A stretch of DNA of 33,702 bases from Candidatus Nanopelagicales bacterium (GTDB taxonomy: Bacteria > Actinomycetota > Actinomycetes > S36-B12), in the NCBI GenBank assembly GCA_044240285.1, contig JBIHZU010000003.1, forward strand, positions 1 to 33,702, written 5' to 3'. The position numbers were made by a program, and so were the translations under genes. The notes beneath the pieces are model-generated. The model worked only from the letters and a program-made list of their open reading frames with translations, was not told the DNA's origin and searched no databases. Positions 1 through 33,702 of this stretch are shown piece by piece. The first letter of the stretch is position 1. Every line of letters starts with the position of its first letter.

Positions 1-511
1 AGCCAATCGCAAGGCCACTGGCTGCCTTCGGACCACCGATTGCCATCGGGTCACGACCGGCTGCGATCGCCGCCATACGAAGTTTCATCGACTCGGCAGT
101 CTGGTTGACCAGCACCCCGGTGACGTCCTGCACAAGGCCGCGGCCGTACTGAGCAGCTGCTCCAGAAATTTGCAGTTCCATACTGATGTTGACTCGGGTC
201 GCCCCGCCAAGCGGCTGCAGACTGATGGTCAACTGTGTGCTGGCAGCGCCGCGGCCCTTCTTGTCGGCCCCGGAGCCATCGAGCACGAGGATCCGGCGCG
301 CGTTGTCGCGTGAGGCAACCTTGACTGCGCCAGAGAACTCCAGCTTTACCGGGCCAGCTGAGATGATTACGCCACCTTCAAAGGAGCCATCCTCTACTTC
401 ATTGGTGAGGTCAGCTCCGGGGATGCACGCGGCAATCAGGGGAACATTTTCGAAGAAATTCCACACGTTGTCGACCGGCTGGTCGACATCGAAGGACTGA
501 GTGATCAGCAT
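1..511 (-). CDS. coxG: CoxG / SRPBCC-family CO dehydrogenase accessory protein; 3' end runs off the window
   Basis: Missing from the ORF track because it has no stop in the window. Manual translation from ATG 511 (GGAGG RBS upstream, 7-nt overlap with the preceding gene): MLITQSFDVDQPVDNVWNFFENVPLIAACIPGADLT...GPVKLEFSG...GADKKGRG...LQISGAAAQYGRGLVQDV. This is the CoxG pattern, and it sits in a cox operon. Confidence 0.9.
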   Translation of the reverse strand, partial: MLITQSFDVDQPVDNVWNFFENVPLIAACIPGADLTNEVEDGSFEGGVIISAGPVKLEFSGAVKVASRDNARRILVLDGSGADKKGRGAASTQLTISLQPLGGATRVNISMELQISGAAAQYGRGLVQDVTGVLVNQTAESMKLRMAAIAAGRDPMAIGGPKAASGLAIG

Positions 512-1464
512 GTGGCCTCCTGGTGGATGAACGAGCCCGGATTTTTCTCGAACGCCACGCGACAGCCCATGGCGCAGAAGTAGTAGGTAGTGCCCTCGTG
601 AACAAACGGACGATTTGCCGGAACTGCTTGAACGGTCATGCCGCACACGAGGTCAATGACCTCCTGCGGTTCGAGCATGGGAAGCATCGCGCGCTGGTGA
701 GGCTTTAGCTGCCCGGCTGCGCGCAGCTGGACCAACTCGGCGAGAATCGAAACGGCGATCTCTCGGTGGGTGGTATGGCCGAGGTCAAGGCCGATGGGGA
801 CCTGTACGCGCGCCAGATCCAACTGTGACGCTCCGCGATCGGCAAGATACCCACGCACTACATCGCCACGCTTACGCGAGGCGACTAGACCGACAAATGC
901 CGGACTAGCAGCCAAGGCCGACTCGAGGGCCTCTTCGTCTCCATGCCCCTGAGTCGCAACGATCACGACGCTCGTCGGGGTGACCATGGCAGATGCAAAT
1001 GCCGATCCATCGACCAATTCACCGCGCCAGCCGATATCGCGCACCAGATCCAGCAATGTGGCGGCCATCGGCGAGTTGCCCACAACAAGAACGTGTGGAG
1101 CAGCCATGACAGGCTCGATGTAGATCTGCAGCGCGCCGTCGCTCTGGCAGGAAATCGGAATAGTCAACACACCTTCCGGCACGTGCATGCCAGAGAAGTC
1201 TGCTTCCTGCCCGAGCCACACCAGAGACGGCGTACCTTCAGCAAGCACGCGCTTGGCCTCGCGGATAAGCACCGGTTGGGCGCATGCCCCACCGATCCAT
1301 CCGATTAACTCACCCTCGGCAGTCACGATTGCACGCGAGCCGTGCTGACCCGAAGACGGAGCTTGGCGCCACACAACGGTCGCCAAGACAAAGGACTCAC
1401 CGGATCGCGCGAGTGACGCCGCGCGTTCCATGATGTCCAACCCGTCAACGGATCCAGCGGTCAC
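505..1464 (-). CDS. XdhC/CoxF-family molybdoenzyme maturation protein with a C-terminal YHS (TRASH) domain
   Basis: N-terminal XdhC motifs (LATVVWRQAPSSG, GWIGGAC, ISCQSDG), XdhC_C motifs (VIVATQGHGDEEAL, FVGLVASRKRG, PIGLDLG...EIAVSILAEL), then DLVCGMTV...YYFCAMGCRVAFEKNP (YHS). GTG start lies 1 nt after the coxL stop; an alternative ATG is at 1431. Confidence 0.9.
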   Translation of the reverse strand: MTAGSVDGLDIMERAASLARSGESFVLATVVWRQAPSSGQHGSRAIVTAEGELIGWIGGACAQPVLIREAKRVLAEGTPSLVWLGQEADFSGMHVPEGVLTIPISCQSDGALQIYIEPVMAAPHVLVVGNSPMAATLLDLVRDIGWRGELVDGSAFASAMVTPTSVVIVATQGHGDEEALESALAASPAFVGLVASRKRGDVVRGYLADRGASQLDLARVQVPIGLDLGHTTHREIAVSILAELVQLRAAGQLKPHQRAMLPMLEPQEVIDLVCGMTVQAVPANRPFVHEGTTYYFCAMGCRVAFEKNPGSFIHQEATC

Positions 1465-1465
1465 G

Positions 1466-3844
1466 TCATCCAGCCTTCACCGGTGGCATACCCGAGACGT
1501 CTTTACCTGTCTGCAATGCCTCATAGACGCGGTTAGGCATCAGCGGCATATCGATATTGCGAACACCGGTGTGCTTGAGGGCATTCATGACCGCATTGAC
1601 GAAGGCGGCGGGGCCACCCACAGTCGCACACTCACCAATGCCCTTGGCACCGATGGGGTGATGTGGACACGGTGTGACGACCTCGTAAAGCTCAAAGCCC
1701 GGGGTCTCCCACGCTGTCGGCAACAGGTAGTCCATGTAGTTTGAGCCGATGCAGTTGCCCTCTTCATCGAAGGTGATGTACTGCATGCTCGCCATGGCGT
1801 ACGCCTCTGTGAGACCGCCCATGATCTGACCCTCGACGATGAGTGGGTTGATACGCACTCCACAGTCGTCCACGGCAACGAACTGCAATACGTCCCAGAC
1901 GCCCGTCTCCGGATCAATTTCGACCTTGCAAATGTAGGCGGCAAACGGCCACGTGAGGTTGGGCGGGTCGTAGTAGGCGTTGTTCTCTAGGCCAGGCTCC
2001 ATGCCGTCAGGCACATTGCTATAGGCGGCAAGAGCGCAATCCTGAATCGTGACTCCACGCTCTTGATTGCCGCGGACGTAGAACCGACCAAGCTCCCACT
2101 CAATGTCCTCCTCCGAAACCTCAAGAAGGTGAGCGGCGATCTTGCGCGCCTTGGCTCGAATCTTGCGCGCCACCATCGCGACCGCCGCACCAGCGACGGG
2201 AGTCGACCGGGACGCATAAGTGCCCATGCCAAACGGTGCCGTGTCGGTATCGCCCTCTTCAACGACAATGTCGTCCGCCGGGATGCCCAACTCGTGCGCA
2301 ACGATCTGCGCCCACGTGGTCTCGTGACCCTGGCCTTGTGTCTTAGCGCCGGTGCGCAGAATCGCCTTGCCTGTCATGTGCACGCGCAACTCGGCTGAGT
2401 CGAACATCTTGATGCCGATGATGTCGTATTCGCGGCTGTTGCCAGCACCAAGCGGTTCGGTCATCGTCGAGATGCCAAGACCGAGAAGCTTGCCGCGCTT
2501 GCGCGCTTCTTCTTGCTCCTGAGCGAAGGTGCTGTAACCAATCGCTTCGAGACCGAGATCAAGGCACTTCTGGTACTGACCTGAGTCCGTGAGGAACCCG
2601 AACGCCGTGCGGAAGGGGAACATGTCGTCCTTGACCATATTGATCCGGCGGAACTCTGCCTGATCCATTCCAAGGTCATCCGCAGCGGCATGAATCATGC
2701 GCTCCTGGAAGAACATTGCTTCCGTCACACGGAAAGAGCAGCGATAGGCGACGCCACCAGGCGCCTTGTTGGTGTACCAGCCTTCACTCGTTAAGTGCGC
2801 TGCTGGAACGTCGTAGCAGGCGAACGCTGAGTGCATCAGGCCGATCTTGAACTTTGTGGGCTGAGCATCCGCGAAGAATGCGCCGTGATCGGAGACGGTA
2901 TGCATGCGCATACCGAGGATCTTGCCGTCTTTGCGCAGTGCCAACTCGCCCTTGAGGTAGACATCACGGCCGAAACCGGTCGAGATGAGGTTGCTGCTCT
3001 TGTCCTCGACCCACTTGACCGGATGCTCCGTGAGGATCGACGCAAGGATCGAGATGACGTAGCCCGGGTAGATTGGCACCTTGTTGCCGAAGCCACCACC
3101 GAGGTCAGGAGACACGATACGGATCATGTGCTCCGGAAGTTCGGCGACCATGGCAACAGCAGCGCGCACGATGTGCGGTGCCTGCGAGGTCATGTAGACC
3201 GTGAGCTTTCCCGTGGCACGGTCAAAGTCGGCAATCGAACCACAGGTCTCCATGGGCGACGGGTGTGACCGTGGGTAGTGCAGCTCCATCTTGGACACCA
3301 CGTCAGCGTCGGCGAATGCACGATCAGTTGCGCTCTTGTCGCCAATCTCCCAATCGAAGATCTTGTTGTTGGTCTGATTTTCCTTGTCATCGCGAATCAG
3401 CGGCGAGTTGGGGTCCTGCGCCTGCATCGGGTTCACGATGGCGGGGAGCTGTTCGTACTCGACGATGATCTTGCTGGCGGCGTCCTTGGCAATGTAGGGA
3501 TCGTCCGCGATAACCGCAGCGACCTCTTGGCCCTGAAAGCGGACCTTGTCTGTCGCGAGCACTGCCTGCGTGTCGTAGGACAGTGTCGGCATCCACGCCA
3601 GGTTGCGAGCGGCCATCGTGTCGCCAGTCATCACCAGGCGAACGCCGGGCACCTCCCACGCCGCACTTGTGTCGATCGACTTGATGCGCGCATGTGCGAC
3701 TGGGCTACGCAGAATTTCCATGTGCAGCATGCCGGGCAGCACGATGTCATCGACGTACTGACCCTTGCCGCGGATGAATCGGTTGTCTTCGACCCGGCGG
3801 CGGCTTGCGCCCATTCCACCGATCTTGAGTTCGTCGAGCGCCAT
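1466..3844 (-). CDS. coxL: Aerobic carbon monoxide dehydrogenase large (Mo-Cu) subunit, form I
   Basis: 792 aa molybdenum hydroxylase large subunit. Active-site loop VAYRCSFRVTEA (nt 2729-2749) is the form I AYxCSFR signature; also GGGFGNK, QGQGHETT, GTYASRS, AKGIGE. GGAGG RBS. Confidence 0.97.
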   Translation of the reverse strand: MALDELKIGGMGASRRRVEDNRFIRGKGQYVDDIVLPGMLHMEILRSPVAHARIKSIDTSAAWEVPGVRLVMTGDTMAARNLAWMPTLSYDTQAVLATDKVRFQGQEVAAVIADDPYIAKDAASKIIVEYEQLPAIVNPMQAQDPNSPLIRDDKENQTNNKIFDWEIGDKSATDRAFADADVVSKMELHYPRSHPSPMETCGSIADFDRATGKLTVYMTSQAPHIVRAAVAMVAELPEHMIRIVSPDLGGGFGNKVPIYPGYVISILASILTEHPVKWVEDKSSNLISTGFGRDVYLKGELALRKDGKILGMRMHTVSDHGAFFADAQPTKFKIGLMHSAFACYDVPAAHLTSEGWYTNKAPGGVAYRCSFRVTEAMFFQERMIHAAADDLGMDQAEFRRINMVKDDMFPFRTAFGFLTDSGQYQKCLDLGLEAIGYSTFAQEQEEARKRGKLLGLGISTMTEPLGAGNSREYDIIGIKMFDSAELRVHMTGKAILRTGAKTQGQGHETTWAQIVAHELGIPADDIVVEEGDTDTAPFGMGTYASRSTPVAGAAVAMVARKIRAKARKIAAHLLEVSEEDIEWELGRFYVRGNQERGVTIQDCALAAYSNVPDGMEPGLENNAYYDPPNLTWPFAAYICKVEIDPETGVWDVLQFVAVDDCGVRINPLIVEGQIMGGLTEAYAMASMQYITFDEEGNCIGSNYMDYLLPTAWETPGFELYEVVTPCPHHPIGAKGIGECATVGGPAAFVNAVMNALKHTGVRNIDMPLMPNRVYEALQTGKDVSGMPPVKAG

Positions 3845-3852
3845 GATGCCTC

Positions 3853-4377
3853 CTAGGCCTGCTGGTCGCGCATCTTGTCGGCCGCCCAGAGGACTGCCTT
3901 CACGATGTTCTGGTAGCCCGTACAGCGGCAGAGGTTGCCGGACAGGGCCCAGCGCACCTCGTCTTCTGTCGGATTGGGGTTTTTCTCAAGCAGCGCCTTC
4001 GCAGCAAGCATCATGCCGGGGGTGCAGAAACCGCACTGCAGCCCGTGCTCCTCCTTGAAACCTTCTTGAATTGGGTGCAGTTCGCTGGCGGTGCCCATGC
4101 CCTCAACGGTCTCAACCTTGTGACCATCGGCTTGTACGGCCAACATGGTGCAGCTCTTAATCGGTCGACCGTCGAAGAGCACCGTGCATGCTCCGCAGTT
4201 TGACGTATCACAGCCAGAGTGAGTGCCAGTCAGCTTCAACCCCTGGCGAATCAGATGCGCGAGCAGCAGACGCGGCTCGACGTCAACGGTGCGCTTTTGT
4301 CCGTTGACTGTGATGCTCACCCGACGCGTAGGAACGCCGTCAGGAACCTGGGTGACTTCCTCGTACAGGCTTGTCAT
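3853..4377 (-). CDS. coxS: CO dehydrogenase small [2Fe-2S] subunit
   Basis: [12 protein letters not shown]...KSC and QCGFCTPG...NLCRCTGY iron-sulfur motifs. Start moved to ATG 4377, 1 nt after the coxM stop (174 aa). Confidence 0.96.
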
Positions 4378-4378
4378 C

Positions 4379-5254
4379 TCACGCTGCTTTCTGCTCGGTC
4401 CGGGCAATCCCAGTGAGAATGCGGGTTACGAAGGTCTTCACAATGTGGCGCTTGTAATCAGCAGAGCCACGATGGTCGGTACGCGGATCTGCGGCATCTG
4501 CGACGGCCTCTGCAGCCGCAGCAATGTTCTCAACCGTCAACTCTTTGCCGTTGAGCACAGAGATTGCATCGTTGGCATCGATAGTGCGGCCCCCAACGCC
4601 GGCAAGCGCGCAACCAGCCCGATTGACCGTGGCGCCAGACATATCCAGGTAAACGGCCACCGAAGCAGTCGCGAAATCGCCCACACGCCGCTCAAGCTTG
4701 AGGTAGCCACCACGAGCAGTGCCCTTGGCACCGGGGATAACTGCTTCAACCGCGATCTCATTGAATGCCAAAGCTGTCACGAATGGGCCGAGAACAAATT
4801 TGCTCATCTCAATCTCGCGTCGGCCGTTGGGGCCTTGAGCCACAATGCGTCCACCGAGCGCGATCATGGTCGCCGCCCAGTCGCCCTGCGGGTCGGCGTG
4901 ACATACGGACCCGACAAAGGTGCCTCGCACGCGCACGATCGGGTCTGCGACGAGAGACGCGGCTCCGGCGAGGGTGGGGTAAGACTTCTCCAGGAGCGCG
5001 GAGTTCTCCATGTCCTCGTGGCGGACCAGCGCCCCGATGCGCAAGGTGCCATCGGCATCCACTCGGACATGGTTAAGCCCGGGGATTCCGTTGATGTCCA
5101 CGATGCGCTCCGGTGAGGCGAACCTCAGCTTGAGCATCGGAATTAGGCTCTGCCCACCGGCAAGAACCTTCGCCTCACCGCCGCTGCGATCGAGGATGGC
5201 GATCGCCTCCTCAAGAGTCTTCGGGGCGTCGTACTCAAAGCGTGATGGGTACAT
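4379..5254 (-). CDS. coxM: CO dehydrogenase medium (FAD) subunit
   Basis: MYPSRFEY start with GAGAGGA RBS (ATG 5254, 291 aa); FAD-binding motifs AKVLAGGQSLIP, RVRGTFVGSVCHADP, RRVGDFA, DHRGSADYKRH. Confidence 0.96.
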   Translation of the reverse strand: MYPSRFEYDAPKTLEEAIAILDRSGGEAKVLAGGQSLIPMLKLRFASPERIVDINGIPGLNHVRVDADGTLRIGALVRHEDMENSALLEKSYPTLAGAASLVADPIVRVRGTFVGSVCHADPQGDWAATMIALGGRIVAQGPNGRREIEMSKFVLGPFVTALAFNEIAVEAVIPGAKGTARGGYLKLERRVGDFATASVAVYLDMSGATVNRAGCALAGVGGRTIDANDAISVLNGKELTVENIAAAAEAVADAADPRTDHRGSADYKRHIVKTFVTRILTGIARTEQKAA

Positions 5255-5271
5255 GAGTGTCCTCTCGGTGA

Positions 5272-5502
5272 CTATGCCTGCGGGTCGCGCACGGCGACCG
5301 GCATCGAGTCGGCATCGGGATCGGGATGTGGCTCCTGGTGCGGCGGCCACGGTCCCTGCACAGGCTGGCTCGCCACCTTCAAGAAGTCGACGAATTGCGG
5401 CCAAGCCCACACTGTGGGGCTCTTGCCGGTTTTAGGGGAATTCTCAATCAACGCATACAGACGTGGCGTACCACGCTCTTGTCCACTGGATTCAACGCCC
5501 AC
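5272..5502 (-). CDS. Small hypothetical protein (about 76 aa) at the head of coxMSL
   Basis: GTG 5502 is preceded by GAAAGGGAG; the stop is 17 nt before the coxM ATG. It fills an otherwise empty 338-nt gap. Sequence ...PRLYALIENSPKTGKSPTVWAWPQFVDFLKVASQPVQGPWPPHQEPHPDPDAD... No family recognised. Confidence 0.55.
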   Translation of the reverse strand: MGVESSGQERGTPRLYALIENSPKTGKSPTVWAWPQFVDFLKVASQPVQGPWPPHQEPHPDPDADSMPVAVRDPQA

Positions 5503-5533
5503 GAGGCTCCCTTTCACATGACCGGTTGCCGGG

Positions 5534-5561
5534 ACACTACTCCCATTCAAAGCACCCGCAA
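5534..5561 (-). promoter_or_regulatory. Putative sigmaA-type promoter for small ORF-coxMSL
   Basis: Minus-strand TTGCGG (5561-5556), 16 nt, TAGTGT (5539-5534), about 30 nt upstream of the small ORF start. Confidence 0.3.
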
Positions 5562-5577
5562 CTGGAAACTCGAAAGA

Positions 5578-5599
5578 AAAGTAAGGACTGACTTACTTT
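5578..5599. promoter_or_regulatory. Perfect 8-bp inverted repeat, candidate operator upstream of the cox promoter
   Basis: AAAGTAAG-gactga-CTTACTTT; AT-rich dyad with a 6-nt spacer, overlapping the xdhC stop codon. Confidence 0.4.
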
Positions 5600-6474
5600 C
5601 GCCTTAGCCCGATGATCTCCGCCGCCACGGAGACAGCGATCTCGGCTGGCGTCTTGGCCCCCAAATCGAGTCCGGCTGGCCCATGAACCCGTGACACGTC
5701 GTGGACATCTTGGTAGGCAAGCCATTCCGCGCGGGACTGCTGCATTGACTGGGAGCCAAGCGCGCCGATATACCCCGCGTCGCTTTCGAGTGCGGCAAGA
5801 AGGCACTTACTCGACGACTCCACGTCGTGGCCCATGACGACGATGGAATCGATCGACGACAAAGTCGCAGCGATTCCGGCGACAAGCCCAGGGCGCGGCT
5901 CGACGAGCACCTTGAGTCCGAGGAGAGCCCCTTGTTGTGCCAAAGCCTCGGCGATCGGCCCCTGCCCAGCGACCACTAGACGCGGGAAAGGCGCAAACAC
6001 TGTGGTGGTGACGAGGCCTTCGGTCTCGACGGCAGAGACACCCGCTTCCAACAACTCGCGATTACGTCCCTGCGCATCGTCGAGAGTCGATATTGAGATA
6101 TCCGTTACGTCGTCTTCGGAGAGCGTCGCCGACACTGCAACAGCCTCACGGTTGAGCAGTCGCAGCCAGATCGTGCTCGGTAGTTGATCTGCCGGCACCA
6201 CAAGGAAACCCACCTTGGTGCCAGCCGGCAGACCAGAGGGCGAACTTTCGAGTTCGGTGACCACATGTTCGATGTGTCGACCGGTCGACAACTTCCGCGA
6301 GGCCACATCAGCGAGAAATCCATCGAATGCACCACCCGCGACGCTTCCGATACGCCCACCACCGGGAGTAAACGCCACTGCTTCATCTGAGGCTGACGGA
6401 GACACAATCCACGCCACATCCGCGCGCGTGCCCGAGCGGACACATGCAGAAACACTCAATGCAATGTCATACAC
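5593..6474 (-). CDS. Second XdhC/CoxI-family molybdoenzyme maturation protein
   Basis: Start re-called at GTG 6474 (MYDIALSVSAC..., 293 aa), 4 nt after the guaA stop. Motifs GGRIGSVAGG, LVVAGQGPIA, YIGALGS, HGPAGLDLGAKTPAEIAVSVAAEI. Confidence 0.88.
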   Translation of the reverse strand: MYDIALSVSACVRSGTRADVAWIVSPSASDEAVAFTPGGGRIGSVAGGAFDGFLADVASRKLSTGRHIEHVVTELESSPSGLPAGTKVGFLVVPADQLPSTIWLRLLNREAVAVSATLSEDDVTDISISTLDDAQGRNRELLEAGVSAVETEGLVTTTVFAPFPRLVVAGQGPIAEALAQQGALLGLKVLVEPRPGLVAGIAATLSSIDSIVVMGHDVESSSKCLLAALESDAGYIGALGSQSMQQSRAEWLAYQDVHDVSRVHGPAGLDLGAKTPAEIAVSVAAEIIGLRRK

Positions 6475-6478
6475 GTGG

Positions 6479-8032
6479 CTACTCCCACTCGATAGTGCCC
6501 GGCGGCTTGCTGGTGACATCGAGAACCACGCGATTAATCTCGCGAACCTCGTTAGTGATGCGGTTCGAAATTCGCGCAATGAGGTCGTAGGGGAGGCGAG
6601 ACCAGTCTGCGGTCATCGCGTCTTCGCTCGACACCGGACGAAGGACGATTGGGTGGCCATAGGTTCGTCCGTCACCTTGCACTCCCACCGAACGCACATC
6701 GGCCAGGAGGACCACCGGGAACTGCCATACGCTCGCATCGAGCCCCGCAGCTGTGAGTTCATGACGAGCAATGGCATCTGCTGCACGCAAGATTGCAAGA
6801 CGATCGGAGTCAATGGCACCCACGATGCGGATTGCCAAGCCAGGGCCGGGAAACGGATGCCGCATGACAATCTCACGAGGCAGCCCAAGCTCTAATCCCA
6901 CCGCGCGCACTTCATCCTTGAAAAGGGCGCGAAGAGGCTCAACCAGCGCAAACTGCATGTCATCAGGAAGCCCGCCGACGTTGTGGTGGCTCTTGATGGT
7001 GGCGGCGCCCGCCCCCACGCCTGACTCCACAACATCGGGATAAAGCGTGCCTTGGACGAGGAACTCAACCGGATCGGAGTCTCCACCCTCGGCCACTACC
7101 TGACGCGCGGCGTCCTCGAATACGCGAATGAATTCGCGTCCGATGATCTTGCGCTTTTGCTCTGGGTCGGTCACTCCCGCGAGTGCGACAAGAAATCGTT
7201 CTTGGGCATCAACGACGACAAGGTGTACGCCCGTTGCGGCAACAAAATCCCGCTCAACTTGTTCGGCCTCGCCCTCACGCAACAAACCGTGGTCAACGAA
7301 GACACAGGTCAACTGATCGCCTACTGCTCGCTGAACTAAGGCCGCGGCTACTGCGGAATCGACACCTCCAGACAGCCCGCACAACACTCGCTTAGCGCCG
7401 ACCTGCTCGCGGATCGCGGCGATCTGTGCGTCAATCACACCTTCAGTTGTCCATGAGGGCTCGCAACCGGCGATGCCATGTAGGAATGCTTCGAGCAGCC
7501 TTTGGCCGTTTTCGGAATGCAACACCTCAGGATGGAACTGAACGCCGGCAAGGCGACGAGACGAATCTTCGAAGGCCGCGACCTGTGCACCGGGTGACTG
7601 TGCAGTCACCGTGAAGCCATCAGGCGCAACTGTCACTGAGTCGCCATGTGACATCCATACGGTCATTTCAGTCGGCAATCCGTCGAACAACCGCGACTGA
7701 CCTTCGACCGTGAGTTGTGTTGATCCGAATTCGCTCTGCCCTGTGCGCTCGACAGTGCCGCCTAGTGCCTGGGCCATAGCTTGGAATCCATAACAGATAC
7801 CGAACACGGGAATGCCTGCGTCAAAGAGAGCAGGATCAATGCTCGGGGCACCTTCGGCGTAGACGCTCGACGGTCCACCCGACAGCACAATCGCCGCTGG
7901 CTTCTTCGCGATCATCTCGGCTGCGGACATCGTGTGGGGCACGATCTCGGAGTAGACATGGGCCTCCCGTACGCGTCGAGCGATGAGCTGCGCGTACTGG
8001 GCTCCGAAGTCAACGACGAGAACGCTGGTCAT
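6479..8032 (-). CDS. guaA: GMP synthase (glutamine-hydrolysing)
   Basis: [52 protein letters not shown]-terminal KPPGTIEWE. Confidence 0.99.
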
Positions 8033-11997: not shown

Positions 11998-13116
11998 TCA
12001 TCGAACCGGATCGACGACGACTTCTACTCGCTGGAACTCTTTAAGTTCGCGGTAACCTGTCGTTGCCATCGCCTTCCGTAGTGCTCCGCTGAGGTTCGCT
12101 GATCCATCTGCATAACGCGAAGGGCCGTTGAGGATCTCGTCGTAGGTGCCCACGGTGCCTAAGCTCGGCCGGTTACCACGTGGTAAACGTGCGTGCCATG
12201 CTTCGTGGCCCCAGTGAATGCCGGCGCCAGGAGAATCTTCAGCGCGAGCGAGGAGTGATCCCACCATGGCCGCGTCTGCTCCGCAGGCGATCGCTTTAAC
12301 CAGATCGCCACTGCGGCCAACGGATCCGTCGGCAATGACATGAACATAACGTCCGCCAGACTCGTCCAAATAATCACGTCGAGCAGCAGCCACATCAGCG
12401 ACCGCACTTGCCATCGGAACGCGAACGCCAAGAACGTCGGCAGTCGTGTGTGCGGCTCCTCCTCCAAATCCCACCAAGACACCGGCCGCACCAGTGCGCA
12501 TCAGGTGCAATGCGGCCTGATAGGTCGAACAACCTCCCACAATCACGGGCACGTCGAGGTCGTAGATGAACTTCTTCAGGTTCAGCGGCTCTCCGTTGTC
12601 GGCAACGTGTTCGGCGCTCACCGTCGTGCCGCGGATAACCAGAATGTCGATGCCTGCTGAAACCGCGATAGGAGCAAGAGTTGCTGCAGATTGTGGCGAG
12701 ACACCGACAGCGACAGTCGCTCCACCAGCGCGAATTTCGGCAATGCGCTGCTTGAGCAAGTCGTGATCAACAGGTGCAGCGGCATAGACGTCCTGCAGGA
12801 CTGCGCCAGCTGACTCTGCTGGCGCAGTGCGAATGCGATCAAGCGCGGCAGCGGGATCGGCGTAGCGTGCCCAAAGGCCGTCGAGGCTCCAAGCCGCCAT
12901 AACGCCGAGTTTGCCCAACGTGATCGCAGTCGACGGAGAGACGACGGAGTCCATCGGAGCTGCGACGACCGGCAAATCGAAACGATAGGCGTCGATCTGC
13001 CACACGGTCGACACCTCATCGGCGTCTCGAGTGCGTCGACTCGGCGCGACGGCGATGTCATCAAAGGAATACGCCGTGCGCCCGCGCTTGCCGCGACCGA
13101 TCTCGATCTCGTTCAT
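11998..13116 (-). CDS. guaB3: GuaB3-family IMP dehydrogenase-related protein
   Basis: EIEIGRGKRGRTAYSFDDIAVAPSRRTRD, ALHLMRTGAAGVLVG, ARRDYLDESGGRYVHVIADG, LKEFQRVE; directly downstream of guaB. Confidence 0.95.
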   Translation of the reverse strand: MNEIEIGRGKRGRTAYSFDDIAVAPSRRTRDADEVSTVWQIDAYRFDLPVVAAPMDSVVSPSTAITLGKLGVMAAWSLDGLWARYADPAAALDRIRTAPAESAGAVLQDVYAAAPVDHDLLKQRIAEIRAGGATVAVGVSPQSAATLAPIAVSAGIDILVIRGTTVSAEHVADNGEPLNLKKFIYDLDVPVIVGGCSTYQAALHLMRTGAAGVLVGFGGGAAHTTADVLGVRVPMASAVADVAAARRDYLDESGGRYVHVIADGSVGRSGDLVKAIACGADAAMVGSLLARAEDSPGAGIHWGHEAWHARLPRGNRPSLGTVGTYDEILNGPSRYADGSANLSGALRKAMATTGYRELKEFQRVEVVVDPVR

Positions 13117-13138: not shown

Positions 13139-15602
<2,464 letters not shown>

Positions 15603-15626
15603 GCGTTGATTGTGGGGCAGTTGGGC

Positions 15627-15658
15627 CATCCTCGCATTCTGAGGGCGCGGCGAGGATG
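15627..15658. repeat. 9-bp inverted repeat in the regulator/whiD divergent region
   Basis: CATCCTCGC (15627-15635), 14 nt, GCGAGGATG (15650-15658). Confidence 0.5.
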
Positions 15659-15682
15659 TGGCACAAATCGCACAGAAACCAC

Positions 15683-15711
15683 TTGACTCGGTTTTGACAC
15701 GGTTCTAAAGT
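15683..15711 (+). promoter_or_regulatory. whiD/whiB3 promoter overlapped by tandem 11-bp direct repeats
   Basis: TTGACT (15683-15688), 17 nt, TAAAGT (15706-15711). Repeats TTGACTCGGTT (15683-15693) and TTGACACGGTT (15694-15704). Confidence 0.7.
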
Positions 15712-15736
15712 GTTCCTACAACCTGAGGAGGTCGCA

Positions 15737-16039
15737 ATGGCTGATGTGTCCCGGCTACCTGGACCGAACGCCGACATCTGGAATTGGCAGCTCGAAGGCG
15801 CCTGCCGCGGCGAGGACCCTGGTTTGTTCTTCCACCCCGAAGGTGAGCGTGGACCGCTGCGCATGGAGCGAGAAGAGGCCGCCAAGGCCATCTGTGCTCG
15901 CTGCCCAGTAGTCACCCGATGCGCCACCCATGCGGTGGCTGTTCGCGAGCCCTACGGCGTGTGGGGCGGACTCACCGAGGAAGACCGCGAGGCAATGTAC
16001 CGCCGCAGCCTCGCACCGGTGAGCGAGCTCATAGCCTGA
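15737..16039 (+). CDS. whiD: WhiB-family [4Fe-4S] transcriptional regulator, WhiD/WhiB3 type
   Basis: MADVSRLPGPNADIWNWQLEGACRG...FFHPEGERG...AKAICARCPVVTRC...EPYGVWGGLTEEDR; four Cys plus GVWGG; GAGGAGG RBS before ATG 15737; typical position next to groEL1. Confidence 0.93.
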   Translation: MADVSRLPGPNADIWNWQLEGACRGEDPGLFFHPEGERGPLRMEREEAAKAICARCPVVTRCATHAVAVREPYGVWGGLTEEDREAMYRRSLAPVSELIA

Positions 16040-16045
16040 ACGCAG

Positions 16046-16087
16046 AAAAAGGAAAGAGCCCGGGATTTCCCGGGCCCTTTCCTTTTT
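16046..16087. terminator. Bidirectional intrinsic terminator between whiD and groEL
   Basis: AAAAAGGAAAGAGCCCGGG-attt-CCCGGGCCCTTTCCTTTTT; 19-bp arms with one mismatch and a U-tract in both directions, between convergent genes. Confidence 0.92.
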
Positions 16088-16096
16088 AGTCAGTCT

Positions 16097-17785
<1,689 letters not shown>

Positions 17786-18253: not shown

Positions 18254-19462
18254 ATGGAGCCCGCTGATATCGACTGGGTGGCGGGTCCGGGCCGGGACAT
18301 CCGGCGGGCGGCTCAAACAGACCTACCGGTCCTCGGCCCGCTGGCCACGGTCACCCACCTGCGGGCGGCCTATCCCGAAGTGGCCCCGGCACAGATTTCA
18401 GCCGCATGTGCTGTGGCAGAAGCGTGCATCTCCCACGCAGGCAAACTCGGCAACGGCGCCAAGACACTCCTGCTGACGGACACCCTCGCGCAGCAAGTGA
18501 CGAACCCATTGGTGTCGGCATATCGGACCCAACGCATGATCGCGGCTGGAGTCAAGGCGGTGATTGATGCGACGAGTGGTGCCGGCCTGGACTCACTCGC
18601 ATTTCACGCCGGTGGACTGGACGTGACAGCGATCGAAATGGATACGGTCGCCTTCGCATGTGCCCGCGCAAACTTGCCCGAATCCGTTGAAGTCCTTCAC
18701 GGTGACGCGCGCGCGATCGTGGCCGAGCTGCTTTCCACGAGGGAGAGAATTGCATTGTTCGTCGACCCAGCGCGTCGCGATTCCACCGGCCCACGACGCA
18801 GCGACGGCAGCCGCGCGTACGCAGAGCGCGACCCGGAACGCTGGTCACCTCCGTGGTCTTGGGTGTGCAATGTGGCTGGGCTCACACCCACTGTGGCCAA
18901 GGTGGCTCCGGGCATTCCACTGTCTCTTGTTCCCGTTGGCGCCACAGTCGAGTGGATCAGCATCGGAAGTGAGGTTGTCGAAGCCTGCGTATGGTTTGCC
19001 CCGATCAATGACTCAGCCTCACGTCGTGCCACTGTCATCAGTCGCGTGGGCGTGATTGAGTCAATCGATAATTCCTTGGATGCAACGCCTGCAGGAATAT
19101 CCAGCATCGGCGAACTTCTACTTGAGCCACACGACGCGGTAGAACGAGCTGGCCTCGTCGACCATCTTGCTGCTCACTGCGGTGCGACTCGAATCACGCC
19201 GGCAAGCACGTGGCTCACTGGGCCGCCTTCTGAGAGCAGCCTTGTGCGAGCGTGGCGGGTGCAAAAGGTCGTACCCGTGAGCGAACTCCGCGACGCACTT
19301 CGCGCATTTGAGCGAGTGAGTTACAAGACGTCCGACATTGATCGCAGTGCCGAAAGCATGGCTCGCGCCATCGGGCATCGAGCGAAGAGTGATGCTCATG
19401 GTGAGGCCTGGGTCGTCATGATGCGCGATGCAACTTTCGCGGCCATCGTGCAGCCTGCCTAA
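18254..19462 (+). CDS. Class I SAM-dependent methyltransferase with THUMP-like C-terminal region
   Basis: VIDATSGAGLDSLAF...AIEMD...ARANL, FVDPARR, WSPPW, KVAPGI, EWIS, LLEPHDAVERAGLV; usual position divergent from groES. Confidence 0.87.
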   Translation: MEPADIDWVAGPGRDIRRAAQTDLPVLGPLATVTHLRAAYPEVAPAQISAACAVAEACISHAGKLGNGAKTLLLTDTLAQQVTNPLVSAYRTQRMIAAGVKAVIDATSGAGLDSLAFHAGGLDVTAIEMDTVAFACARANLPESVEVLHGDARAIVAELLSTRERIALFVDPARRDSTGPRRSDGSRAYAERDPERWSPPWSWVCNVAGLTPTVAKVAPGIPLSLVPVGATVEWISIGSEVVEACVWFAPINDSASRRATVISRVGVIESIDNSLDATPAGISSIGELLLEPHDAVERAGLVDHLAAHCGATRITPASTWLTGPPSESSLVRAWRVQKVVPVSELRDALRAFERVSYKTSDIDRSAESMARAIGHRAKSDAHGEAWVVMMRDATFAAIVQPA

Positions 19463-28107: not shown

Positions 28108-31100
28108 CTACAGGCCGCCGGTCAGGATCGCGGTGTCGGCGGGGTAGTCGATCTTAGGATCAAATGCTCCCGTGGGCCACGGGGTGTAGGGCCCCACGGG
28201 ATCTGTGCCATGAGGGCGCACGTAGGCCATGGTTACTGCACCCGAATCGCCTGCCTCAATATTCGTCGCGACGCGCCCCGGGAAGGGGATATTTGCCGCA
28301 GCGCGATACGTCGTGATCGCGCCGCTGTTGGACACCACCGTCACGAGGTACTTAATCCAGGCACCACGTGGGAACCACGACACGCTCTGCGGGAAGAGTC
28401 CTGAAATCTCTAGGGAGCCCCGGAATACCGTCGCAGTGATTCCATCGAGCGTTGCGCAGGAGCCATCAAAAGAGCAGGTTCCGAGAGTCGCATAGCCGGT
28501 GGCCTCACCCGCTGACGGAGACCGAGCATGGAGCAAGTTATCGGCCGCCGCGTCGTAGGCCGATGGCATGATCATCGCCTGCACCCTCGATGCACTGAGG
28601 TTGACGTTAGCGAGGTTCGGAAGCGCGATGCTGATCTGGCTAGAGAACTGCTGGGCGAACTGCATGGAGACGCCGACCCCGTAACCTATGTCTATCGGCT
28701 GTGGTGGATTTGCCGCAGCGACGGCCGCGTAGGCATCTGCGATGGCCTGGTTCCACGCCACAACTCGCTGTCCTTCCTCAGTGTCATCGGCAGCTACCAT
28801 CTGGTCTCCCACGAGGAGCGTGTAGTCGGGAGTCTCCCGGAAGGCCGGATCGTTCGCAGGTCCACTCCTCGCGTACTCATCAATGGCTTCGTCGAGATAA
28901 CTCGCCACTATCTCATCGAAACTCACGCGGCCAGGAACAATTGCCTTCACGATCTCCGCTTGAACTGTCTGAGTGGCAAGTTTGCCGAAGTACAGCCACC
29001 CCTGATTAATCTTCCCAATCCGGAACTGAGCTGCCCACGCCATCTGTCGGGCGACTTGTACGGGCATGCTGGTGGTCACACGCAATGCGGCTGCGGTTGC
29101 CCCAGATTTCGCTGCTGTCAAGAATTGCGCCACACGTCCTGGAGCACTCGCCGCTGCCGTTGCCGGACGCGCGGCGATTGCTGCCGCCCGCGCTGCCTTG
29201 AACGCTACGAATCCAGCTTTGAGACCTGCAAACACCGGTCCAGCAACCGTTGAACCAATGGCAAGCGCGGCACAAGTCCACGTCGAGCACGTCATTGCAC
29301 TAAAGATGTTGTAAACCGGGATCATCGACAACGCCACCGCAGTAACGGTCATCAAGAATGCGGCGACTGCCTCGCTGCGGAAAATAGCCATCCACAAGGA
29401 ATGCTGAGCATTTCGGAACCAATCCATCGCAGTATTCGCCGCCCACCACCAGGTGGAATGGATGGGAGAAGGTTCCTGCAGAACTCCACCCAGCCATTGT
29501 CCCGAAGCCGAGACAATGGCGCTTCCGGTGGTGTTGACCGCGATAGACGTGGCGTTGAGCGGGAGGCTCGATGACGCCGAGGAGATGCCCCAAGGCGTCG
29601 TAGTCGTCACAATCAGGGTGTCAGCGCTCGTTAGAGTGAAGCCCAGCGAGGAGGGATCAATTTCCATGGCCATTCGGCCGCCGATAGGCGTGATTTCTGG
29701 CTTCAGGAAAGTGGTGCCATTGCCATCACTGCTCAAACATACGCCGGAGTAGAAGCAGATCGCGATGATTTGTGAGACGCCGGAGTGCGTCAACTGCAAA
29801 GACACCATGACATTCGCCATAGAGGTCTGAACTTCCGGCGCCATGCCGGTCCAACGAGCCGCGGTCAGCACACGAAGTTTCTGACCCGCCGATTCGCTCG
29901 TAAGAGCCACCTCTGCCATCTGCGTCGTCGCCCACGGCGAGACATTAAGCGTGGTGCTCACAAGCCCGTGACCGGAGTCGGCATAGGACATGATGCCTAT
30001 GTCACGTGTGCCAACAGTCAACCCGCCGATGTCGACCGCGTCAGCTGAATCGACATTGCGCATGGACCACACGATGCAGCGAGTCAGACAGGTGAGTCCG
30101 GTGCCCGCAACGGCGCTTCGCCACTGCTCTTGTCCGCCAAAAGGAATGGATGCGGCATTAATCGTCTGTCGCTCCGAGCCGTACATCTCTGTCGCGGAAT
30201 AGAGCCGATCATTCGACCAGGAGGAATCAGGAGCGACAAATAGGGGCTTTGTGCCTGGCTGAGAAACCGCAAGGGCCATTGGCACATAGGCGTCGTCGTC
30301 TACGCCGAATACCGGGTCAATGGTGGCGCGAACAAAAGCCGTCTCTCCCACTCGAGGATCACGGACCCCCCAGTTAGACCACGAAAGGACTCGTTCAGAT
30401 CCCTCGCGATGTAGCGAGTTGTTAATGGGTGCGTACGTGCCACCGGTGATATTCGCTGAGGCGATGTCCATGCGAATCACGGGAGCGCCGGCACCATGCA
30501 CCCCTGCCTCATGTGCAGTACGTGCGGTGGTCACCGCTGTCGACCTCGCCGGTGCGTAGTCAGCAGTCACGCCCGTCTCATAGGCGCCCACGAACACTTG
30601 GCTCGTCACCGTAACCGCAAAACCACCAGCCTCAGACGCGACACTTACGGAACTCTTCGGCGTCAACATGTTGATTGTCAGACCTGCTGCAGCCAGACTC
30701 TGCTCGGTAATCGCGGATCGATTGACGTTGTTGATCACCAAGGTATCTGTGGTCGCCCCAGTCGCAAGATCGACCGTGACGTCATGTCGGGTGGGAGTGC
30801 AGTAAGTGTTGACGCCAGTACTTCCGACGCCGGTCCTGCCGCAGAAGACGGGGCGTACTGCGTGGAATGTCACTGTCCCCGTACGGAGATTCGCGGCCAT
30901 GGAACTCGGGAAAAGAACTTTGGTAGAAACCGGCACGAGATGATCACGGAGAACCGAGTCGTGGAGCAGCTGCCTAGGCGACACCGGTACCGGTGTCTGA
31001 TTGACCTGACCGCTCGCGGCAGCTGTCACGGTCACCGCACCACTATCCCCGGCCGATGTGCGAGTGATTGCCGTGAAGAGAATCGCGGTGTCGTTGGGCA

Positions 31101-33702
31101 GTCCAGAGATCGCGCATGAGGTTGACGTGGTGATGCACTGCCCAAAGGAGAGCCCGACGTAGGAGGCGGTCACCTGATAACCAATGATCGTGGTGTCACC
31201 GACAGTGGGTGGGGCAACCCATTCGAGATTTACTGTGCCCGAACCGCCCGATACCGCTGTAAGACTAATCGGCGGGCCGGCGCCGATAACCACGTCAGAA
31301 ATCGTCGACGTCCAACGAACACGTCCCGTGGCTACCGTCTGGGTGAATACACGTCCCGTCGCGGCGGAGGTGTAGGTCGCCCTCAGAGTTTCACCAACAC
31401 CTGCATCGCGAACATCGTTCGGGAAGCGGCCCGTCGCCCGACAGTCGGTCGAACAGACAATTGATGGATTGACAATTTCCGCATCAGGACCGGGTGTCTG
31501 TCCGGTAGCAAACGCGACGGTACCGAGAGAACCGGGTCCCCCTACCGTGAGCGTCGCTGTAGCGGCCTCGCCAGGACGCGTGCCAGCTGAATCCACGGTA
31601 AGAATCATTGACACCGCACTTGGCTCAACGGACACAGTGATCGGGGCCGTTGTCCGCTGGAAGCCCGAACGGCCACCACCTGCGACCACAATAAGGTTTT
31701 GGTTCCCAGCCAAAGTGGGTGTCATGTGTAGAACAGCGTTGCCTGAAGCATCCGTGAGCACAACAGCCGTGGACACCATCGTTCCGAAAGAGTCCTCGAC
31801 ATGCACCGGGACTCCTACGGCGAGAGGCGCCAGACTGGTGACTGCGAGATTAGCGTTGATCACCACATCACCACCGACATACGGAACTGGCGACGATGCC
31901 ACCGTCGCGGTGACAACGGGTGTGGGTGTTTGCGCAAGGGTGACCGGGAACATGCCACTCGTTGCACTGCACTCGCTGCCTTCCGCAACTTGCACCGTAA
32001 GGTCCTGAGTGCCGCTGGCCGTGGCAGCGAGCGCGAACCTTCCTCCGTTGGCCAAGGTGCCCGAGCCGAGTACTTTGCCCGCTGAGTCAGTCACGGTCGC
32101 AATGCTCCGAAGACACGGGAGCGTTGCAGTGCGGCCGGTGGAATCGGCTCCCACAAAGTTAGCCGCCACTGTAGCTACGCCAGGAACGCCGGCTCCGGCT
32201 GGGTACGAGAATGTTGCCGTGAGGTTCTGGGCTGGTCGGCTGCTTGCCTCCAACCAACCGCTCAGAAAGTTGAATCCCACATCGACGGTAGAGTTGTCTG
32301 GGCTCCCATCGAAGCCGACGCGAAGTGACGAACTCCCGGTCGAAATAGGCACGAGGAAAGTCGCCTCACGATTCACCAGCCAACCTTCGTAGACCTTCCC
32401 GTCGAGCATCAGCCTGACCGCACCTTGCGGGGCACGACTCAGACCCCAACCATACTTCTCTTCCACTCGGACCGTGATTCGGTGATAACCGGTGTCGGTG
32501 AGAACGGCTCCCACAATCGGGGTAGATCCATCAAGCACCGCCGTAATGATTGGACGCGCCGGAAGCAGATTGGGCTTGACCTCAAACTCTACTGAGCGCG
32601 TTGCGCTTCGGCCGTTCTCGTCGCTAGCTGCGATGACAGCGGTCCACTTACCTTGTGCCAACGTAACGGCCGAGGTGAACACATTGTTGTTTCGAGCAGC
32701 CCACGTGCGGGAGGGATTAGTAGAGATCCATTCAAAGCCACCTTGGGCACCCGATGTTCCGTTCCAGCCTTGGTAATAGGTGATGCTTCCATCTTGCGCA
32801 TAGGACAGATTGGAGGTGTCGGCTGATCCGGCCTTTATGCCATATCCACCCGAAATTGTGCCGACCAATCGAGCAGAAGGGATTACTTGCCCGTTAGAAG
32901 GGTTAGAGAGCTCAATAGTGGGTGGACTCGTATCAATGGTGAATTCCCGTGGAGTGGAGTAGCCCACGAGGCCCCCGTTGTTGGCCTGCGACACCCGAAT
33001 CACCCAGCGGCCTTCGGGAACGTAGATCTCCTTAGTCCAGCGACCATCCGCTGCCCAGGCATTCACCGTGACGGTCGAGTAAGGGGACTCCACGATTGTG
33101 GGCCATGCGGCGATGTCACTACGCCGATAGAGACTAAGGGTTAGGTCACGCAGATCTCCCGTGCGCGTGGACCTTAATCCAGCTACTTGGACACTCGTGA
33201 ACGAATAGGTATCCCACCTGCCGGAGCTCTCCATGTCGATGTACGCAGAGGGATAAGGGACCTCTCCATTAAGCGTGAAGGTTGCCGATCCTGAGACGCG
33301 CTGGATTCCCGTGCCATCTTGGGTGGTGCACACTCCCGAGTTGCTGATTGCGATGCACTTTGTGTACGCCACCGCCAACCGAGTCGCGGCAGTAAACGTG
33401 TAAGACCCGTTGGGATAGGCGCCGACTAACGTGCAGGTCCAGTTGCTCCCAGAAACGACTGGCGTGCAGGTCTTGACGGCCGATGCGGCGAGCTGGCTCG
33501 GGAAGCTAGTGATGGTGACATCCGTGCCCAATATGCTCAATGGCACTATCTCGGAGACGGGCAAGGTACCGGTGACCGTGATCGTCTGGGTACTTGACGG
33601 ATTGCTAGATCCAGGATCACGTTCACCAGTCACCGTCGCAAGTGTGACCACCGGCGCGGGAAGAGTGACTGCGAAGGTTGAGGTCGCACTCCCGGCGCCT
33701 TG
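28108..33702 (-). CDS. Giant Ig-like/fibronectin type III domain protein, probably extracellular; 5' end outside the window
   Basis: The frame stays open from the window edge (QGAGSATSTFAVTLPAPVVTL...) to TAG 28108, at least 1864 aa. Thr/Ser/Val/Gly/Ala-rich beta-strand composition, Big-like segment (FTIDTSPPTIELSNP), FN3 module at about 31020-31280, many short Cys pairs, hydrophobic helical region at about 29060-29470. Confidence 0.85.
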   Translation of the reverse strand, partial: QGAGSATSTFAVTLPAPVVTLATVTGERDPGSSNPSSTQTITVTGTLPVSEIVPLSILGTDVTITSFPSQLAASAVKTCTPVVSGSNWTCTLVGAYPNGSYTFTAATRLAVAYTKCIAISNSGVCTTQDGTGIQRVSGSATFTLNGEVPYPSAYIDMESSGRWDTYSFTSVQVAGLRSTRTGDLRDLTLSLYRRSDIAAWPTIVESPYSTVTVNAWAADGRWTKEIYVPEGRWVIRVSQANNGGLVGYSTPREFTIDTSPPTIELSNPSNGQVIPSARLVGTISGGYGIKAGSADTSNLSYAQDGSITYYQGWNGTSGAQGGFEWISTNPSRTWAARNNNVFTSAVTLAQGKWTAVIAASDENGRSATRSVEFEVKPNLLPARPIITAVLDGSTPIVGAVLTDTGYHRITVRVEEKYGWGLSRAPQGAVRLMLDGKVYEGWLVNREATFLVPISTGSSSLRVGFDGSPDNSTVDVGFNFLSGWLEASSRPAQNLTATFSYPAGAGVPGVATVAANFVGADSTGRTATLPCLRSIATVTDSAGKVLGSGTLANGGRFALAATASGTQDLTVQVAEGSECSATSGMFPVTLAQTPTPVVTATVASSPVPYVGGDVVINANLAVTSLAPLAVGVPVHVEDSFGTMVSTAVVLTDASGNAVLHMTPTLAGNQNLIVVAGGGRSGFQRTTAPITVSVEPSAVSMILTVDSAGTRPGEAATATLTVGGPGSLGTVAFATGQTPGPDAEIVNPSIVCSTDCRATGRFPNDVRDAGVGETLRATYTSAATGRVFTQTVATGRVRWTSTISDVVIGAGPPISLTAVSGGSGTVNLEWVAPPTVGDTTIIGYQVTASYVGLSFGQCITTSTSCAISGLPNDTAILFTAITRTSAGDSGAVTVTAAASGQVNQTPVPVSPRQLLHDSVLRDHLVPVSTKVLFPSSMAANLRTGTVTFHAVRPVFCGRTGVGSTGVNTYCTPTRHDVTVDLATGATTDTLVINNVNRSAITEQSLAAAGLTINMLTPKSSVSVASEAGGFAVTVTSQVFVGAYETGVTADYAPARSTAVTTARTAHEAGVHGAGAPVIRMDIASANITGGTYAPINNSLHREGSERVLSWSNWGVRDPRVGETAFVRATIDPVFGVDDDAYVPMALAVSQPGTKPLFVAPDSSWSNDRLYSATEMYGSERQTINAASIPFGGQEQWRSAVAGTGLTCLTRCIVWSMRNVDSADAVDIGGLTVGTRDIGIMSYADSGHGLVSTTLNVSPWATTQMAEVALTSESAGQKLRVLTAARWTGMAPEVQTSMANVMVSLQLTHSGVSQIIAICFYSGVCLSSDGNGTTFLKPEITPIGGRMAMEIDPSSLGFTLTSADTLIVTTTTPWGISSASSSLPLNATSIAVNTTGSAIVSASGQWLGGVLQEPSPIHSTWWWAANTAMDWFRNAQHSLWMAIFRSEAVAAFLMTVTAVALSMIPVYNIFSAMTCSTWTCAALAIGSTVAGPVFAGLKAGFVAFKAARAAAIAARPATAAASAPGRVAQFLTAAKSGATAAALRVTTSMPVQVARQMAWAAQFRIGKINQGWLYFGKLATQTVQAEIVKAIVPGRVSFDEIVASYLDEAIDEYARSGPANDPAFRETPDYTLLVGDQMVAADDTEEGQRVVAWNQAIADAYAAVAAANPPQPIDIGYGVGVSMQFAQQFSSQISIALPNLANVNLSASRVQAMIMPSAYDAAADNLLHARSPSAGEATGYATLGTCSFDGSCATLDGITATVFRGSLEISGLFPQSVSWFPRGAWIKYLVTVVSNSGAITTYRAAANIPFPGRVATNIEAGDSGAVTMAYVRPHGTDPVGPYTPWPTGAFDPKIDYPADTAILTGGL

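Follow-up and report, generated by a model that had tools for sequence, protein, structure and literature searches.

The window analysed here, a stretch of 33,702 nucleotides of a Candidatus Nanopelagicales contig, carries on its plus strand a WhiB-family gene of the whiD/whiB3 type (15737..16039; 100 aa; Pfam Whib, 6e-26), preceded by the Shine–Dalgarno sequence GAGGAGG at 15725..15731, 5 nt before the ATG at 15737, and followed by a terminator-like hairpin that a sequence scan placed at 16058..16075 on the same strand. On the minus strand upstream lie a guaB-like gene (11998-13116), guaB (13139-14698) and a gene for a CarH/LitR-like regulator of 317 aa with a MerR helix-turn-helix and a B12-binding domain (14676..15629), and beyond whiD, again on the minus strand, come groEL and groES. 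The regulator gene and the WhiB gene are separated by 107 bp, and the two 11-bp units with which this analysis is concerned both fall inside that gap.

The order guaB ... whiD ... groEL-groES is common to the window and to the related loci described below, and we take the neighbourhoods of Streptomyces whiD and M. tuberculosis whiB3 to be equivalent to it. In all 80 related loci, Streptomyces and others, the gene at the whiD position encodes a protein that is 63–79% identical to the WhiB protein of the window and matches it from residue 1, which supports the ATG at 15737. By the Pfam match, this identity at the corresponding position and the guaB/groEL synteny, the gene is of the whiD/whiB3 type. 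No Rfam family reached threshold in or near its leader, nor anywhere else in the window. Several features lie further off: GroEL (16097-17737, minus strand) ends in a histidine-rich C-terminal tail of 11 residues; a 402-aa open reading frame adjoining groES (18254-19462, plus strand) and an 1847-aa one (28108-33651, minus strand) have no Pfam family at E <= 1e-5; and a molybdoenzyme cluster of the xanthine-dehydrogenase/CO-dehydrogenase type occupies 505-6579 beside guaA (6479-8032), with genes for large, 2Fe-2S and FAD subunits and two XdhC-like genes, one of them with a YHS domain.

The whiD promoter is sigma-70-like, with the −35 hexamer TTGACT at 15683-15688, a spacer of 17 bp and the −10 hexamer TAAAGT at 15706..15711, and it was the sole promoter of this kind when both strands of 15400-16150 were scanned (1 found versus 0.1 expected). 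Unit 1, TTGACTCGGTT (15683..15693, plus strand), contains the −35 hexamer and is followed immediately by unit 2, TTGACACGGTT (15694..15704, plus strand), which occupies the promoter spacer; the two units are identical at 10 of 11 positions and differ at one. Both the coordinates and the identity agree with the sequence-only reading that preceded this work, and so does the alternative register CCACTTGACTC / GGTTTTGACAC / GGTTCTAAAGT that it gave for 15679-15711. From the position of the promoter, transcription of whiD is inferred to start near 15717-15719. For the divergent regulator gene, neither the promoter scan of 15400-16150 nor inspection by eye yielded a minus-strand promoter. A perfect 9-bp inverted repeat, CATCCTCGC / GCGAGGATG, with 14 nt between its arms (15627-15635 and 15650-15658), overlaps the regulator ATG at 15629 and in mRNA would sequester that start codon, though the 91 nt around it do not fold better than shuffled sequences (z = −0.91).

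How often such a pair would arise by chance was judged from the window itself. Adjacent 11-mers with at least 10 of 11 positions identical occur at 2 places in the 33.7 kb, versus 0.27 +/- 0.53 in 200 dinucleotide shuffles, and TTGAC-N6-TTGAC occurs exactly once. The other tandem pair, AGTCGACGGAG / AGACGACGGAG, lies at 12928-12949 within the guaB-like coding region.

The resemblance to a known operator fared differently. The sequence-only reading had likened the units to CarH repeats of the form nnnnTnnACAn overlapping a −35 box, a consensus and an overlap that the passages on CarH operators in PMC9304148 confirm; the same repeat is described in the corresponding part of PMC8156234. Scored against it, the units of the alternative register reach 3/4, 4/4 and 1/4, so that unit 2, the only full TnnACA at the site, matches completely and unit 1 has one mismatch, as had been claimed; the resemblance itself, however, is at chance level. 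The window holds no exact TnnACA-N5-TnnACA, and with one mismatch allowed it holds 14 sites, the whiD site among them, against 14.0 expected; a TTGACA −35 box is, moreover, TnnACA by construction. Because observed and expected counts coincide at the same stringency, the consensus match carries no weight, and we dropped it as evidence. The proposal of three units was not borne out either, since only two qualify: the flanking 11-mers at 15668-15678 and 15701-15711, where a third or fourth CarH unit would fall, each score 1/4 against nnnnTnnACAn, and identity is 0/11 between unit 1 and the unit before it and 4/11 between unit 2 and the unit after it.

The divergent regulator has Pfam matches to MerR_1 (5e-16), MerR (1.9e-8) and B12-binding_2 (9e-8), and scores 20.4 bits with Pfam B12-binding, below the cut-off of 32.1. 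It aligns to Thermus thermophilus CarH (5C8D) across the DNA-binding and B12-binding domains (E = 1.7e-14), with the Trp-x9-Glu-His motif, which in CarH caps the upper adenosyl ligand, and the Glu-x-His lower-ligand motif in register. Laid against the pattern ExHx2Gx41SxV/Tx22-27GG, the protein keeps E213-x-H215, has Pro for Gly and a gap of 42 rather than 41, and continues with SxT and with GG after 23 residues. The light-response signature is given in the part of PMC11796333 that sets it out as GxxW, EH, GxxH and GxxxP, and the regulator fits three of these four elements (GQRW, EH and GSRLP), with DEPH in the place of GxxH. It scores 82.3 bits with the NCBIfam CarH equivalog NF052513, far short of the cut-off of 400. 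Homologues of the regulator number 5139 at E <= 0.001, the closest being P0001 at 99% and P0002-P0004 at 56–57%. By these comparisons the regulator is CarH/LitR-like and is not an orthologue of a characterised CarH. The conserved cap and ligand residues, and these only, suggest that it may be controlled by adenosylcobalamin and light.

To place the promoter in a wider setting, we used 80 whiD loci fetched after a genome scan with the window's WhiB protein. In 15 of them whiD is preceded by a divergently oriented homologue of the regulator; these comprise 12 MAG loci (L001-L009, L016, L020 and L044) and three from Kineococcus (L013, L014 and L023). The 65 loci without the regulator comprise about 60 from Streptomyces, three from Kitasatospora and the MAG loci L011, L033 and L075; in the regulator's place, L011 and L033 have a LuxR-type response regulator together with an ECF sigma factor, and L075 has an ECF sigma factor. 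The record titles of L004, L007 and L001 name Bifidobacterium breve, Rubrivirga and Actinomyces, labels that look unreliable given that GroEL and synteny group these loci with the Nanopelagicales-like MAGs.

The related regulators are 39–51% identical to that of the window, and their alignment has 51 invariant columns that lie mostly at residues 20-56, so that the DNA-binding domain is almost invariant, which fits a conserved target. Trp-x9-Glu-His is kept in 9/9 of the MAG-type regulators aligned and is absent from 3/3 of the Kineococcus ones, where a deletion of 13 residues removes it; in two of these three, Arg replaces the cobalamin-ligand His as well. Despite the lost cap, the Kineococcus loci keep the DNA-binding domain and the best-conserved promoter block, and their regulators look like B12-independent derivatives. 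Because the block is kept there without the cap, control by B12 or light cannot hold in Kineococcus and cannot be general.

The 16 regulator-linked promoters, that of the window included, were anchored on the −35 box to give an ungapped alignment, and conservation was computed on 13 relatives, with the window left out and L014 and L023, which nearly duplicate L013, set aside. In these 13, columns −1 to +21 (23 bp) are alone conserved, at 1.17 bits per column versus 0.11–0.36 in the flanks. The relatives' consensus reads TTGACCAACTT and then nTGrmnCGrTT, with which unit 1 and unit 2 of the window align, respectively. Seven bases, T0, T1, G2, T12, G13, C17 and G18, are invariant in 13/13 relatives, and the window has every one of them; the invariant spacer bases of this set, the TG and CG of unit 2, go beyond what contacts of RNA polymerase alone explain. 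A TAnnnT box follows after a 17-bp spacer in 9 of the 16 sequences and an 18-bp spacer in 6, and none is seen in L002, where there is a run of N.

A 25-bp weight matrix built from the 15 relatives, with the window excluded, gave a single match of at least 8 bits on the two strands of the window, at 15682..15706 on the plus strand (21.6 bits), which delimits the conserved promoter/operator block. The same matrix has no match upstream of whiD in any of the 65 loci without the regulator. Presence of the block in 15/15 regulator-carrying relatives is circular, as the matrix was built from those loci, but the scores of the window and of the negative loci are not. The comparison with whiD promoters that lack the regulator, one of the checks named in the sequence-only reading, came out in favour of its operator, with the block in 0/65 of these versus 16/16 regulator loci when the window is counted. 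In four Streptomyces loci (L019, L053, L071 and L073), matrix matches of 14–17 bits, CTCGAACAACTGAAGGAACGTTT-like, lie at position 3821, just 3′ of whiD.

What is conserved across orthologous promoters is the block, at the 1.17 bits per column given above, and not the near-identity of its two halves; the near-identical tandem units first described are peculiar to the window and L016. Identity between unit 1 and unit 2 is 10/11 in the window and 9/11 in L016, and only 3-6/11 in the other 14 of the 15 relatives, none of the 15 having a full TnnACA in unit 2. Unit 1 of the window reads TCGG where 11-12 of the 13 relatives read CAAC, keeps the invariant T-T-G, and bears the hallmarks of unit 2, namely TG, CG and TT.

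Many relatives carry the element a second time. The minus strand upstream of the whiD promoter was searched with a 22-bp matrix of the element, at 45 positions per locus and against 158,988 background positions; L002 was not scorable owing to its run of N, and the scan covered the MAG relatives, with the three Kineococcus loci outside it. In 8 of the 11 MAG relatives scored (L001, L005, L007, L008, L009, L016, L020 and L044) the 5′ end of the best minus-strand match falls at exactly −10, at a background frequency of 1e-5 to 2e-3, and no such copy is found in the window, L003, L004 or L006. The inverted copy lies ∼10–31 bp upstream of the whiD −35 box and forms with the promoter copy an array of ∼53 bp with two-fold symmetry. 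Its units are more alike than those of the promoter copy, as in L044 with TTGAACAACTT / ATGAACAAGTG, and several fit TnnACA in full, so that TGAACA-type tandem units stand on the opposite strand in these relatives. No TAnnnT follows the inverted copy, which is thus not a promoter and points to a binding site; a bound protein would best account for its being conserved. In the Kineococcus loci, unit 1 instead recurs in direct orientation at −23.

An 11-bp rhythm is also visible without reference to the matrix. In 12 relatives (the window, L002, L014 and L023 being left out), lag 11 gives the top autocorrelation (z = 3.7) and lag 9 the next (z = 2.8), z values that kinship among the sequences inflates. 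Two further observations concern the stretch directly 5′ of the −35 box, which in relatives carries the inverted copy: the window has GCACA at 15661-15665 and again at 15670-15674, a spacing of 9 bp, and L006 has in the place of the inverted copy, ∼20–40 bp upstream of its whiD −35 box, a strong inverted repeat with CTTGAG...CTCAAG arms, presumably akin to the HspR-associated inverted repeat.

The strict co-occurrence of block and regulator has to be read against the phylogeny. On a GroEL tree built from the 20 rows whose GroEL match reached at least 450 aa (61 loci in which groEL lies outside the fetched flank or is cut by it were excluded), no more than 2 changes are required for the regulator-positive label. 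One or two events in evolution could account for the link of the regulator with the block, and because so few changes are needed and a single origin is compatible with them, the 16-versus-0 count is phylogenetically confounded and weak alone. The window and L016, the two cases with nearly identical units, are not neighbours on this tree, L016 being a long branch, and homogenisation of the units may have happened twice. Two such homogenisations would fit two equivalent binding units, though two cases prove little.

Taken together, the conservation confined to the block, the invariant spacer bases and the inverted copies make it probable, and in our judgement strongly so, that the block is a regulatory element to which a protein binds. 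That the protein which binds it is the neighbouring regulator is a proposition we regard as evenly poised. On the reading we prefer, with confidence that is likewise only middling, the units at 15683-15704 represent, in the window, a conserved cis element of two parts that lies over the −35 box and spacer of whiD, and this element would be a non-canonical operator of the divergent CarH/LitR-like regulator. The claim that the repeats are the operator of the adjacent regulator is thus retained in part: a conserved block, its linkage to the regulator and the CarH-like domains of that protein speak for it, and the match to the CarH consensus, the third unit and a conserved identity between units have fallen away.

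One competing explanation is that some other transcription factor binds the block, for instance an OmpR-family response regulator such as MtrA. To our knowledge MtrA is present across the phylum, and regulators of this family also recognise two short direct repeats with 11-bp phasing. The Streptomyces MtrA consensus, G/T-T-G/A-A-C-C, N5, G-T-G/T-A-C in the portion of PMC5650626 that deals with MtrA sites, is fitted by the window site with 2 mismatches, and the TTGACC of the relatives is an exact first half. The fit is nevertheless uninformative, as the window holds 42 sites at 2 mismatches against 38.6 expected, and we dropped the MtrA consensus as evidence; nor does it account for the strongly conserved CAAC, CG and TT positions. 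The block is, moreover, missing from 65/65 loci without the regulator, about 60 of which are from Streptomyces, and whiD was only slightly changed in an S. coelicolor mtrA mutant, according to the results on that mutant in PMC5650626. We consider a binder of this sort unlikely.

To much the same degree we doubt that there is no dedicated repressor site at all, and that a well-conserved promoter has in the window undergone an accidental local duplication or homogenisation that recreated its −35 box as a 10/11 repeat. Near-identity of the units is indeed confined to the window and L016, neither the TTG of the −35 hexamer nor TAnnnT is unusual in a promoter, and the co-occurrence with the regulator may reflect one or two events. 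A plain promoter does not, however, call for the TG and CG of the spacer, invariant in 13/13 relatives, for unconserved flanks around the block, or for an inverted copy that lacks a −10 box and yet holds a fixed position in 8 relatives.

A third possibility, which we rate as quite improbable, accepts the neighbouring regulator as the binder and differs in how it would act: it would work as a dimer of the classical MerR type, remodelling the spacer to activate or in a dual role, instead of assembling as a CarH-like oligomer on direct repeats. MerR activation typically works on an over-long spacer of 19–20 bp. The site does lie within the −35/−10 spacer, where MerR proteins bind according to the account of them in PMC8156234, several relatives have a CAAC-N10-GTTG dyad across the spacer, and the two elements of many relatives form a large inverted arrangement. 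Against a dimer of this type, the spacer is not over-long, being 17 bp in the window and 17–18 bp in 15/16 sequences; the CAAC-N10-GTTG dyad is absent from the window and L016, and a repeat search of the window site returned no dyad inside 15683-15711 of the kind that marks a classical MerR operator; and the C-terminal domain of the regulator is CarH-like, with no metal or drug pocket.

Two staggered promoters with two starts, TTGACT-17-TAAAGT and a second one formed by TTGACA (15694-15699) and TACAAC (15717..15722, plus strand) at the same 17-bp spacing, are highly improbable, for although both hexamer pairs exist, TACAAC is missing the conserved final T and the promoter scan did not report it, its start would fall within the Shine–Dalgarno sequence at 15725-15731, unit 2 is not −35-like in 13/15 relatives and no second −10 box is conserved.

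If the preferred reading of a non-canonical operator for the divergent regulator is correct, the regulator would bind in oligomeric form, each 11-bp unit being contacted by one DNA-binding domain and all of these domains lying on one face of the helix. The bound oligomer would occlude the −35 box and the spacer and so repress whiD, and its loss would give RNA polymerase access and relieve the repression. A spacer of 17–18 bp is already optimal, which fits occlusion and not spacer remodelling of the MerR type. By analogy with CarH, release could follow photolysis or the absence of adenosylcobalamin; that the regulator works in this CarH-like manner, with B12 and light, is possible but, in our estimation, doubtful.

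As a broader and tentative proposal, a cobalamin-dependent, light-sensitive CarH-like repressor of planktonic freshwater Actinomycetota might directly gate transcription of an iron-sulfur regulator of the WhiB3/WhiD type through a non-canonical operator of the form TTGACCAACTT plus nTGrmnCGrTT, which would be doubled in inverted orientation (∼53 bp) in many relatives and kept in Kineococcus by a derivative without the B12 cap. If so, light or B12 sensing would be tied to the WhiB redox and developmental network, and the range of sequences and architectures of CarH-family binding sites would be widened. Proteins of the WhiB3/WhiD type are at the centre of redox and developmental regulation in Actinobacteria, and the transcriptional control of their genes is largely unknown outside Streptomyces and Mycobacterium; should the regulator repress whiD here, light or B12 status would feed into the WhiB network of abundant freshwater actinobacteria. 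A search of the full-text literature (open-licence PMC and bioRxiv) returned no LitR/CarH-type regulator linked to whiB3 or whiD.

Several known systems invite comparison. MtrA-type (OmpR-family) sites are alike in having two ∼6-bp direct repeats 11 bp apart that are able to overlap promoter elements, as the treatment of these sites in PMC5650626 describes, but the match of the window to kTrACC-N5-GTkAC is at chance level and the conserved CAAC, CG and TT are not covered by it. Thermus thermophilus CarH (PDB 5C8D/5C8E/5C8F) is alike to the window regulator over both domains, Trp-x9-Glu-His and Glu-x-His included, although the similarity is low and the window protein has Pro for the Gly of ExHxxG and a gap of 42 instead of 41. 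The Kineococcus regulators, having lost the cap and kept the DNA-binding domain and the block, parallel CarA of Myxococcus xanthus without being orthologous to it, and we know of no antirepressor partner for them. CarA itself is a B12-independent CarH paralogue, as stated in the section on it in PMC9304148.

The closest parallel is with the CarH/LitR operators of Thermus thermophilus, Bacillus megaterium and myxobacteria, which share with the window the 11-bp phasing, the head-to-tail units, the overlap with the −35 box, a TTGACA −35 box within the repeat and a divergent or adjacent gene for a CarH-type regulator. They differ in the number of units, with three in Thermus, four in B. megaterium and five in Myxococcus against only two convincing ones in the window, although CarH operators with only 1-2 full repeats plus degenerate ones are known from the examples given in PMC9304148. 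They differ also in sequence and layout, being built of TnnACA units, whereas the family of the window has TTGACCAACTT and nTGrmnCGrTT and not TnnACA in every unit, and lacking the inverted second element that many relatives of the window add. Finally, the known CarH operators target carotenoid genes, whereas the candidate operator of the window would target the gene of a WhiB-type regulator.
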